The notes beneath the pieces were generated by a model. That model saw only the letters and a list, made by a program, of their open reading frames with translations, did not search any database and was not told the origin of the DNA. Below are positions 30,108-32,315 of a stretch of 64,000 nucleotides of DNA, one piece after another. Position numbers and translations under genes: made by a program. How positions within the stretch are numbered: position 1 is the first letter of the stretch; each line of letters opens with the position of its first letter. Origin of the DNA: Escherichia coli (GTDB lineage Bacteria; Pseudomonadota; Gammaproteobacteria; Enterobacterales; Enterobacteriaceae); the NCBI RefSeq assembly GCF_003991155.1, contig NZ_CP031293.1; one strand, written 5' to 3'.

Positions 30108-30959
30108 TCACGACCTGTGCGGATAATGAGGGTTTAAGAAAAGAAAAAGCGGTCTTTCAAAGGGAGATTCTGAAAACTTTATAGCTCCCGAACTTGATAA
30201 TGAACTATACAACTCATGATTTATTCTGTTTTTATCTTTATAATAATTAGTAATAGGTCTATTATTATATTGATTATATAACAATGTTGAAAAAGACTCA
30301 TCTAATGGCTTTATATAATTTAACCATTCTGGAAGCTTCTTTTTTATTAGTTGATTTTTTTTAAAAGGAGGATGGGTTGTAAATAAGAATGGCGTAAACT
30401 CAGTATTTTTAAAATTCCCTGGCGCTCCATATGTATCCCATATTTGTAAGGCTTTTGTGTAAGATAAAGGTTTTGCCAATAAAAGTGGATCGGGGCCTGT
30501 TCCAAATACACGATAAAAACCAATCAAGTCTGAGACTAAATCTTCTGCACTAAATCCGCTATCAGTATACCAGTTAAAAATAAATGAGTTTTGCCATGCT
30601 TCAAACCTCTTCGCAGTTCCATACATTAACGTTAAGGCAACTCTTGCTTTAAGAGTGGGTGAAAGACATGAACGAACCATAACCTTCGTATAAACACCGG
30701 TATGAAATGTAAGATCTACTCCTAATATTTTTTCCCGAATTCCCATTTCCTGATGATAATCAACAGGAAAATACCAATCATGAAATTCATCGTAATATGT
30801 TGAAAAATGTTCTTGCTCCAATTTTCTTTTTAATATTCTGGCATCTTGTCCCTGAGCATGCCCCAAATCGATCCAACCTAACTCTTCGGTATAAACTAAT
30901 CCATACTTTTTCGTTGTTGCAAATATTCCATCAGTAATATCGTTACGTTTGCTCATCAC
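30108..30959 (-). CDS. Hypothetical protein, 283 aa; candidate effector/toxin of a two-gene cassette, function unknown
   Basis: ORF with GAGGGGAG RBS upstream of a GTG-ATG start; single Cys; AT-rich codon usage unlike the flanking genes; absent from the K-12 araC-yabI interval. Confidence 0.6.
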   Translation of the reverse strand: MMSKRNDITDGIFATTKKYGLVYTEELGWIDLGHAQGQDARILKRKLEQEHFSTYYDEFHDWYFPVDYHQEMGIREKILGVDLTFHTGVYTKVMVRSCLSPTLKARVALTLMYGTAKRFEAWQNSFIFNWYTDSGFSAEDLVSDLIGFYRVFGTGPDPLLLAKPLSYTKALQIWDTYGAPGNFKNTEFTPFLFTTHPPFKKNQLIKKKLPEWLNYIKPLDESFSTLLYNQYNNRPITNYYKDKNRINHELYSSLSSSGAIKFSESPFERPLFLFLNPHYPHRS

Positions 30960-31432
30960 AATCTCCCCTCAAAAAAAACGTATAGCAAATAATATCAATA
31001 AGGAAAAATATTATTTTTCAATGTTTTTTTGTATACAATTCATTTTATGAATGAATTTACAAAGATAGCTGCGCCTGATACCGCTACACTTTTGCCAGAC
31101 CATGTTCTCCTCTGAGGGAGTAACTGGCGCTTTTCATAGAATGCCGTACTTTTTTCAACAACTGCCACATCGAACGGCATTTATGGTGGCGTGAAGTGCC
31201 TGCCATAACCGCTCAATGTGGTGTTCCTACGATGAACAAACCGCTTGATATATTCTCCTGATACAACCGGACAATATGTTCATGATGGGTATCCCGATAC
31301 ATAAGCCTTCGTTTTATTTTTACAAAAAGAAATCGTTGTCGATATTTTATCAAGAAAAAAATAATTCAGGTAAAACGATTCAACTAAAAATAACTAAAAT
31401 TAATCCCCCGTGAAATATATAAATAACGTCAG

Positions 31433-31469
31433 ATGAAGAAAGCAAGGGGGGCCCCCCCTTGCTTTCTTA
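31433..31469. repeat. Long perfect inverted repeat with G6/C7 core at the island-araC junction (terminator-like or recombination site)
   Basis: aagaaagcaagggggg | cccccccttgctttctt, arms of ~16 bp, abutting the new araC stop codon. Confidence 0.7.
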
Positions 31470-32315
31470 TTATTCACATCCAGCCCTAAACTCGCTCGGG
31501 CTGGCCCCGGTGCATTTTTTAAATACTCGCGAGAAATAGAGTTGATCGTCAAAACCAACATTGCGACCGACGGTGGCGATAGGCATCCGGGTGGTGCTCA
31601 AAAGCAGCTTCGCCTGACTAATGCGTTGGTCCTCGCGCCAGCTTAAGACGCTAATCCCTAACTGCTGGCGGAAAAGATGTGACAGACGCGACGGCGACAA
31701 GCAAACATGCTGTGCGACGCTGGCGATATCAAAATTGCTGTCTGCGAGATGATCGCTAATGTACTGACAAGCCTCGCGTACCCGATTATCCATCGGTGGG
31801 TGGAGCGACTCGTTAATCGCTTCCATGCGCCGCAGTAACAATTGCTCAAGCAGATTTATCGCCAGCAATTCCGAATAGCGCCCTTCCCCTTGCCCGGCGT
31901 TAATGATTTGCCCAAACAGGTCGCTGAAATGCGGCTGGTGCGCTTCATCCGGGCGAAAGAAACCCGTATTGGCAAATATTGACGGCCAGTTAAGCCATTC
32001 ATGCCAGTAGGCGCGCGGACGAAAGTAAACCCACTGGTGATACCATTCGCGAGCCTCCGGATGACGACCGTAGTGATGAATCTCTCCTGGCGGGAACAGC
32101 AAAATATCACCCGGTCGGCAGACAAATTCTCGTCCCTGATTTTTCACCACCCCCTGGCCGCGTATGGTGAGATTGAGAATATAACCCTTCATTCCCAGTG
32201 GTCGGTCGATAAAAAAATCGAGATAACCGTTGGCCTCAATCGGCGTTAAACCCGCCACCAGATGGGCGTTAAACGAGTATCCCGGCAGCAGGGGATCATT
32301 TTGCGCTTCAGCCAT
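31470..32315 (-). CDS. araC: AraC, arabinose operon regulator; C-terminally shortened allele (281 aa, ends ..SEFRAGCE*)
   Basis: Start at [15 protein letters not shown]; the last 11 residues of K-12 AraC are replaced by a stop at the insertion junction. Confidence 0.9.

Follow-up and report, generated by a model that had tools for sequence, protein, structure and literature searches.

We analyzed the 513-bp spacer that separates araC from a two-gene cassette in Escherichia coli and found that it is probably an evolutionary patchwork of four pieces and not one functional unit, a reading to which we assign a probability of about 0.8. Read in the direction of transcription (minus strand), the pieces would follow one another as the araC stop with its hairpin, a ~175-bp kinase relic, a ~197-bp insertion sequence (IS) stub and a 108-bp native region. 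Only the last ~110 bp would then be the cassette's own promoter region, which would make this an ordinary spacer and not a dedicated regulatory leader. None of the components is new in kind: the spacer combines an IS630 stub with the relic of a gene start, an intrinsic terminator and a putative sigma-70 promoter. An earlier note on this DNA had described a ~470-bp part of the spacer as consistent with an H-NS-silenced promoter region or with an unannotated small RNA or leader controlling the cassette.

The whole stretch of DNA that was analyzed (the window; 64,000 nucleotides) contains the E. coli thiBPQ-yabI / araC-araBAD locus, as determined from its open reading frames (ORFs) and from the RefSeq annotation of 100%-identical genomes. 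The genes around the spacer are listed below.

28760-29524, minus strand: yabI
29679..30101, minus strand: cassette gene 2, 140 aa
30108..30956, minus strand: cassette gene 1, 282 aa when read from ATG and 283 aa when read from GTG
31470..32315, minus strand: araC, 281-aa form ending in ...FRAGCE and the stop
plus strand: araBAD

Since araC, both cassette genes and yabI share the minus strand, the earlier note had correctly placed the stretch upstream of the cassette operon. The full araC-to-cassette spacer runs from 30957 to 31469. On the cassette side it is bounded by the ATG at 30956, the start chosen by PGAP (a GTG lies one codon further upstream, at 30959), and on the araC side by the stop of that gene at 31470-31472. 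Here the gap between araC and yabI was ~1.9 kb with a GC content of 22-35%, while in K-12 the araC-yabI distance was 85 bp. Among 5426 complete E. coli genomes, 486 carried the two-gene cassette, every time between araC and yabI, and 575 (ST131 included) carried a PfkB kinase/DHDPS/TctCBA island between the same two genes; the remainder, K-12 included, were assumed to be mostly of the empty K-12 type. E. coli has three alleles at the araC-yabI hotspot, which is empty or holds either the metabolic island or the DUF4056 cassette.

We also observed that the sequence matching the last 11 codons of K-12 AraC and its stop (EKVNDVAVKLS, then stop) lies 1.8 kb from araC in the window, at 29610-29659, between yabI and cassette gene 2. 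It was also conserved at the equivalent position in Citrobacter and Salmonella. Comparison of the K-12 locus (record L004, positions 1225-1362) with the window (31470-31500) indicated that the island is bounded by an imperfect direct repeat of ~23 bp (GCTGGATGTGAATAATAAG / GCCGATTGTGAAGAAAAAG). The imperfect flanking repeat together with the displaced AraC end suggests either that a deletion between the flanking repeats produced the empty K-12 allele with its longer AraC, or that the island was inserted with a duplication.

The ORF list confirmed that no ORF of at least 60 aa occurs on either strand between the 283-aa gene and araC, and a check for small ORFs found that the longest ORFs in the spacer were 46 aa and the longest stop-free stretch 54 aa. 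When 473-bp sequences matched to the composition of the ORF-free stretch were randomised, 36% (Markov-1) to 56% (mononucleotide shuffles) of them were equally without a 60-aa stop-free stretch. The absence of a 60-aa ORF is therefore no more than chance. The stretch had also been described as strongly AT-rich with A/T tracts. This was true on average, with 35-37% GC (35.1% for the stretch itself) as compared to 52.4% for the window, and nine A/T tracts of 5-8 nt each were found. However, the composition was not uniform, and the spacer could be divided into four blocks:

30957-31064: 22% GC
31065-31262: 47.5% GC, near the genome average
31263-31440: 29% GC
31441-31469: 62% GC

These distinct GC blocks gave the first hint that the spacer is composite. 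Sequence comparisons identified the following pieces:

30957..31064, minus strand: native cassette upstream region, 108 bp, 22% GC (alignment with orthologous spacers)
31066..31262, minus strand: IS630-family 3'-terminal remnant, ~197 bp (blastn, tblastn and PGAP)
31263..31435, minus strand: relic of a kinase-gene 5' control region with the first 13 codons (blastn, tblastn and alignment)
31436..31468, just past the araC stop codon: perfect palindrome whose 16-nt arms are separated by 1 nt (repeat search)

The IS630 stub is already known, since it is labelled as a pseudogene in RefSeq/PGAP. PGAP lists an 'IS630 family transposase, frameshifted; incomplete; missing N-terminus' at 31084-31223 on the minus strand, and the IS630 pseudogene was annotated in every cassette-bearing record that we inspected. 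Using blastn, we matched positions 31065-31261 at 73-81% identity with the 3' end of ISEc33-like elements, which occur on many enterobacterial plasmids and chromosomes; the closest intact relative that we found was only ~80% identical. A tblastn search indicated that the ORF at 31084-31206 (MAGTSRHHKCRSMWQLLKKVRHSMKSASYSLRGEHGLAKV, then stop) matches the C-terminus of the ISEc33 transposase (E-value 2e-15), with residues ~308-344 and the stop, i.e. the last ~37 codons, aligned to it. Beyond this ORF the IS sequence was frameshifted or deleted. The homology to two intact elements reached exactly to their terminal base (TAGCTGCGCC / TGGCTGCGCC) at 31066, where the IS end abuts a TA, and this was the single end present. 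Thus, the stub has in common with IS630/ISEc33-like elements a 3' end that is complete to the terminal base and a transposase tail of ...CRSMWQLLKKVRH...KV and stop. On the other hand, it differs from the intact elements in that only ~197 of ~1,150 bp are left: the left end, the catalytic domain, ~0.9 kb of sequence and ~300 codons are gone. Since it lacks the left end and the catalytic domain and carries a 13-nt deletion, the stub cannot transpose. A direct repeat (GATA..CCTGATAC) noted at both edges of the stub was 78% identical over 18 nt and was judged to have occurred by chance.

The ~175-bp, 29% GC block on the araC side of the stub was related to the metabolic island. By blastn, positions 31265-31470 aligned at 81% identity with the araC-proximal end of the ST131 island, which consists of five genes, with a DeoR-HTH/PfkB kinase at its head, a DHDPS-family protein and a TctCBA transporter. 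By tblastn, the fossil first 13 codons of the kinase gene were located at 31302..31264 (MYRDTHHEHIVRL as compared to MYRDTRREYIVRL in ST131), with 10 of 13 positions identical in the tblastn match. The ST131 PfkB/DHDPS/TctCBA island occupies the same chromosomal site and has the same araC-proximal end, and the two loci share the terminator region, ~170 bp of upstream DNA and the 13 codons at 77-90% identity. The window copy, however, ends at codon 13 and is followed by the IS stub and the two-gene cassette. The ST131 island differs further in its junction with yabI and in its upstream region, which contains two additional blocks of 26 and 23 nt. In the ST131 record that we inspected, araC was annotated as a pseudogene with an internal stop.

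The palindrome at 31436..31468 is the junction palindrome of the earlier note. It folds into a hairpin with a 15-bp stem (-27.7 kcal/mol, z -5.2), was flagged as terminator-like on both strands and was the sole significantly stable structure in the spacer. As in intrinsic terminators, a stable, GC-rich hairpin is thus present at the araC stop, although its U-tract is imperfect (3' arm UUGCUUUCUUC, then CAUCUGACGUUAUUU). The hairpin likely serves as the terminator of araC, where its transcripts would stop, and shields the cassette from read-through out of that gene.

The only part of the spacer assigned to no foreign element was 30957-31064. Orthologs of the 283-aa protein with ~70% identity occur in Citrobacter, Salmonella, Trabulsiella and Enterobacter. 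We fetched nine orthologous loci, and the upstream alignment covered 10 loci. In Citrobacter and Salmonella the order was araC, a 97-167-bp spacer, the cassette and yabI, while in Trabulsiella, Enterobacter and another Enterobacterales genome it was araD, a 135-139-bp spacer, the cassette and polB, so that the spacers of all nine loci fell between 97 and 167 bp. Conservation in the alignment was limited to the part of the E. coli spacer within ~110 nt of the ATG, and ~400 bp of this spacer had no counterpart in the orthologous cassettes. The conserved block comprised (T)TTGTTT, 17 nt, TGnTATAAA (TATAAT in Salmonella), AGGAGG and ATG, with AGGAGG and then the ATG located ~20-25 nt downstream of the -10. 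The block in the orthologs resembles a textbook example of an extended -10 sigma-70 promoter with a ribosome-binding site, an assignment made by conservation and consensus only. We noted three elements in the corresponding E. coli region:

30963..30970, minus strand: Shine-Dalgarno sequence GAGGGGAG, 6 nt before the ATG at 30956; the orthologs have AGGAGG there
30979..31007, minus strand: candidate promoter P1, with a -35 of TTTTCC (31007..31002), a 17-nt spacer and an extended -10 of TGcTATACG (30987..30979)
31037..31057, no strand assigned: perfect 8-bp inverted repeat AATTCATT-N5-AATGAATT, ~80-100 nt upstream of the ATG and next to the IS end

The TTGTTT-17-TGnTATAAA arrangement was conserved in most of the nine orthologs. 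E. coli P1 retains the TG and the spacing, but both hexamers are degenerate (TTTTCC/TATACG as compared to TTGTTT/TATAAA), and relative to the extended -10 sigma-70 class it has a weak -35 (TTTTCC) and a weak -10 (TATACG). The conserved site was among the top three position weight matrix (PWM) hits in six of the nine orthologs but was outside the top hits in the E. coli spacer, and P1 was also unreported by a 9-of-12 consensus scan of that spacer. From its conserved position we infer that P1 is the cassette promoter, its function being predicted. The cassette would then be transcribed from native P1, whose -10 ends 22 nt before the ATG, giving a 5' UTR of ~15-25 nt. With such a short 5' UTR, most of the presumed leader would not be transcribed as a leader at all. 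The promoter-region part of the earlier claim is accordingly retained only for the proximal ~60-110 bp, about a fifth of the spacer, which likely hold a promoter and are conserved with the orthologs.

The right half of the inverted repeat at 31037-31057 (ATGAAT/CAAT) was partly conserved in the orthologous spacers, and the repeat is possibly a regulator site. It matched no known motif, and its geometry did not fit an ARG box or another regulator. An AraC half-site was considered as well, because the cassette is invariably found next to ara genes and the conserved block ATAGCATTTGTTT in its upstream region is similar to the araI1 A-box (TAGCATTTTT...). This candidate was dropped for lack of support, since TAGC was not conserved across the orthologs, there was no TCCATA B-box and no second half-site was present 21 bp away; the ortholog alignment demonstrated no AraC site upstream of the module. 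As a separate observation, the two-gene module adjoined arabinose genes in every genus examined, on either flank, and was co-oriented with the upstream ara gene. In Escherichia the order was araC, module, yabI, as in Citrobacter and Salmonella.

The idea of a dedicated ~470-bp leader found no support in these results. Between ~370 and 400 of the 513 bp are leftovers of unrelated elements, and the orthologous cassettes manage with the 97-167-bp spacers described above. The earlier note had named unrelated filler as the finding that would speak against its reading, and this is what most of the stretch turned out to be. We also weighed a long leader that arose by accident, for which the kinase relic offers a candidate promoter:

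31352..31344 (extended -10; -10 hexamer at 31349..31344), minus strand: candidate relic promoter P2, TTTACC-19-TGaTAAAAT (PWM scan)

We consider it unlikely that P2, surviving from the decapitated kinase gene, fires into the cassette and produces a ~380-nt 5' leader running via a 29-codon fossil ORF (ATG 31302, stop 31213) and the IS stub. Of the sigma-70 sites in the E. coli spacer, P2 had the highest PWM score; it sits 41 nt upstream of the fossil ATG, no intrinsic terminator was predicted between it and the cassette, and the degeneracy of native P1 in E. coli favours such a leader. However, P2 is a consensus match only, and promoter-like hits in the region (13) were not above those in shuffled sequences (9.0 +/- 3.2). 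Its 19-nt spacer is unfavourable, and the P2 leader segments showed no significant structure. The other consensus promoter of the ST131 version (CTGACG-18-GATAAT) has been destroyed in the window, where the counterpart of its -10 is now GGGGAT, and this also argues against the long leader. Being long and for the most part untranslated, such a leader would also be open to termination by Rho, which we counted against it. With the cognate DeoR-type regulator gone, a captured kinase-gene promoter around 31344-31380 would possibly be de-repressed; expression of the DUF4056 module from this foreign promoter is a prediction that we regard as quite improbable. If true, it would be a case of promoter capture by island-to-island fusion.

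An unannotated small RNA or cis-regulatory RNA in the spacer, for example a ~100-nt plus-strand transcript running from 31319-31365 to the hairpin at 31436-31468, appeared very improbable. Plus-strand promoter-like sites (9 of 12 matches) are present at 31319-31365 with the terminator-like hairpin downstream on the same strand, and the plus-strand fold of 31355-31475 had a z of -3.7. This z, however, stems entirely from the araC terminator hairpin. Furthermore, the homologous ST131 stretch has its 26- and 23-nt insertions inside the would-be small RNA, and the orthologous cassettes in other genera are without this block altogether. A search of Rfam 15 with permissive filters gave best hits of 13-27 bits against gathering scores of 40-100, and the hits below threshold were all to implausible families. 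When we applied RNAalifold to the 10 upstream regions, we found zero conserved pairs in the conserved proximal region, which argues against a cis-regulatory RNA and against an RNA structure shared across homologous cassettes. The fold of the proximal 125 nt was no better than that of shuffles (z = -0.47). A 501-nt minus-strand fold of the spacer reached z = -2.9, a value confounded by mixed composition; we attributed it to the mixing of the 22% and 47% GC blocks in the shuffles and discounted it because the sub-segments were non-significant. A literature search found nothing relevant on the cassette locus, its proteins or its transcription.

In enterobacteria, AT-rich DNA gained by horizontal transfer is a preferred target of H-NS binding and silencing. 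The odds are about even, in our estimate, that an H-NS filament nucleated by the AT-rich spacer and the low-GC cassette represses the cassette promoter, a reading that is compatible with the patchwork explanation and does not exclude it. Two blocks of the spacer, at 22% and 29% GC, are AT-rich and contain A/T tracts, and the cassette has 31-34% GC in a genome of 52% GC. As acquired DNA of 22-34% GC that carries A/T tracts and is surrounded by a 52% GC chromosome, the locus resembles H-NS-silenced low-GC islands, but its central IS stub is near the genomic GC content. Three 8-of-10 matches to the H-NS high-affinity motif TCGATAAATT were found in the spacer; such matches are what an AT-rich sequence yields by itself, and the motif search was uninformative since the hits were no more than local AT-richness predicts. 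The central 198 bp at 47.5% GC also argue against an H-NS region. H-NS binding to the 22-34% GC blocks is plausible and is predicted on general grounds: the AT-rich blocks probably attract H-NS as any low-GC acquired DNA would, generically and not as a designed leader. Silencing of this kind would be a general feature of the island and no evidence that the 470 bp, most of which are relic DNA, evolved to control the cassette.

The patchwork reading was further examined by a population comparison of the window with four B2-type strains, among them UM146, ATCC 25922 and UPEC 26-1. The island (29525-31440, from the spacer between yabI and the 140-aa gene onward, relics included) differed by 0.2-1.3%, mostly <1%, from the B2-type strains, while the flanking genes araC (31470-32315) and yabI (28760-29524) differed by 3.1-4.1%. 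The transition in divergence occurred inside the terminator palindrome, where 4 substitutions in 29 bp mark the right-hand breakpoint. All of the 486 cassette-bearing complete E. coli genomes (486/486) carried the same spacer mosaic upstream of the cassette. Since divergence of the island is below that of its flanks, the mosaic must have been assembled once and moved between lineages as a unit, and the comparison indicates a recent transfer of the whole island between phylogroups by homologous recombination. Within the island, the spacer had 4 substitutions in 484 bp (0.8%) and the two genes had 5-6 in 1272 bp (0.4-0.5%), all of which are small counts. The substitution rate of the spacer was thus not below that of the genes, and there was no sign of extra constraint on the spacer.

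As for how the patchwork came about, we infer that an IS630-family element was inserted at a TA ~110 bp upstream of the cassette, and that a later deletion or illegitimate recombination fused the kinase gene of the neighbouring or alternative island, at its codon 13, to the interior of the IS. The order of these two steps, insertion followed by deletion, is a reconstruction. An evolutionary intermediate, with either an intact IS or both islands together, was found neither in the 5426 E. coli genomes nor in three extra contigs. A scan of species-representative genomes with the N-terminal pattern of the protein recovered only the already-known Enterobacter locus. The relics (~370 bp) would be passengers.

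The cassette proteins were analyzed as well. The gene 1 protein matched PF13265 with an E-value of 0.15, which is below the Pfam cut-off, but 15 of 46 aligned gene 1 homologs matched this family, the best with 1.3e-6. A 2025 preprint assigns DUF4056 to the 'CapCone' group within the Lipocone superfamily, near the TelC lipid II phosphatase toxins, and describes as CapCone-DUF4056 motifs a Gly six residues before the active-site His and S/GxxSxx before a conserved Asp (bioRxiv 10.1101/2025.01.14.632903). In our gene 1 alignment, G27...H33 and S133-x-x-S136-x-x-D139 were invariant and fit these motifs. Judged by its sequence, the gene 1 protein is probably a divergent DUF4056 protein ('CapCone-DUF4056', Lipocone superfamily). 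An AlphaFold model of the 283-aa protein (pLDDT 86) had no neighbour among solved structures. The gene 2 protein has an N-terminal transmembrane helix, a DcrB/PsbP-MOG1-like domain and two invariant cysteines, and its gene evolves fast; the product is a candidate immunity or partner protein. Neither cassette protein had a match in PADLOC or NCBIfam. For Salmonella, a DUF4056 bicistron was put forward as a candidate T6SS effector.

Gene 1 was frameshifted in ATCC 25922 and appeared truncated or split in SCU-485 and in Logan contig L024; the many homopolymer indels in the SCU-485 assembly may reflect sequencing errors. The gene was intact in UM146, UPEC 26-1 and LWY24. In the protein database, a truncated 202-aa form of gene 1 was common, with 385 member sequences as compared to 963 for the full-length form. 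The drifted hexamers of P1 and the frequently frameshifted gene 1 suggest that the cassette may be a decaying and weakly expressed module in E. coli.

These results call for caution, as a long AT-rich and ORF-free stretch before an acquired operon can mimic a regulatory leader. Comparison with related genomes revealed that ~80% of the spacer is debris of an insertion sequence and of an island competing for the same hotspot. The search for control elements of the cassette is thereby narrowed to ~110 bp, with P1 and P2 as two concrete candidate promoters. For E. coli, the findings indicate that this cassette allele has a single origin and later passed from one phylogroup to another.
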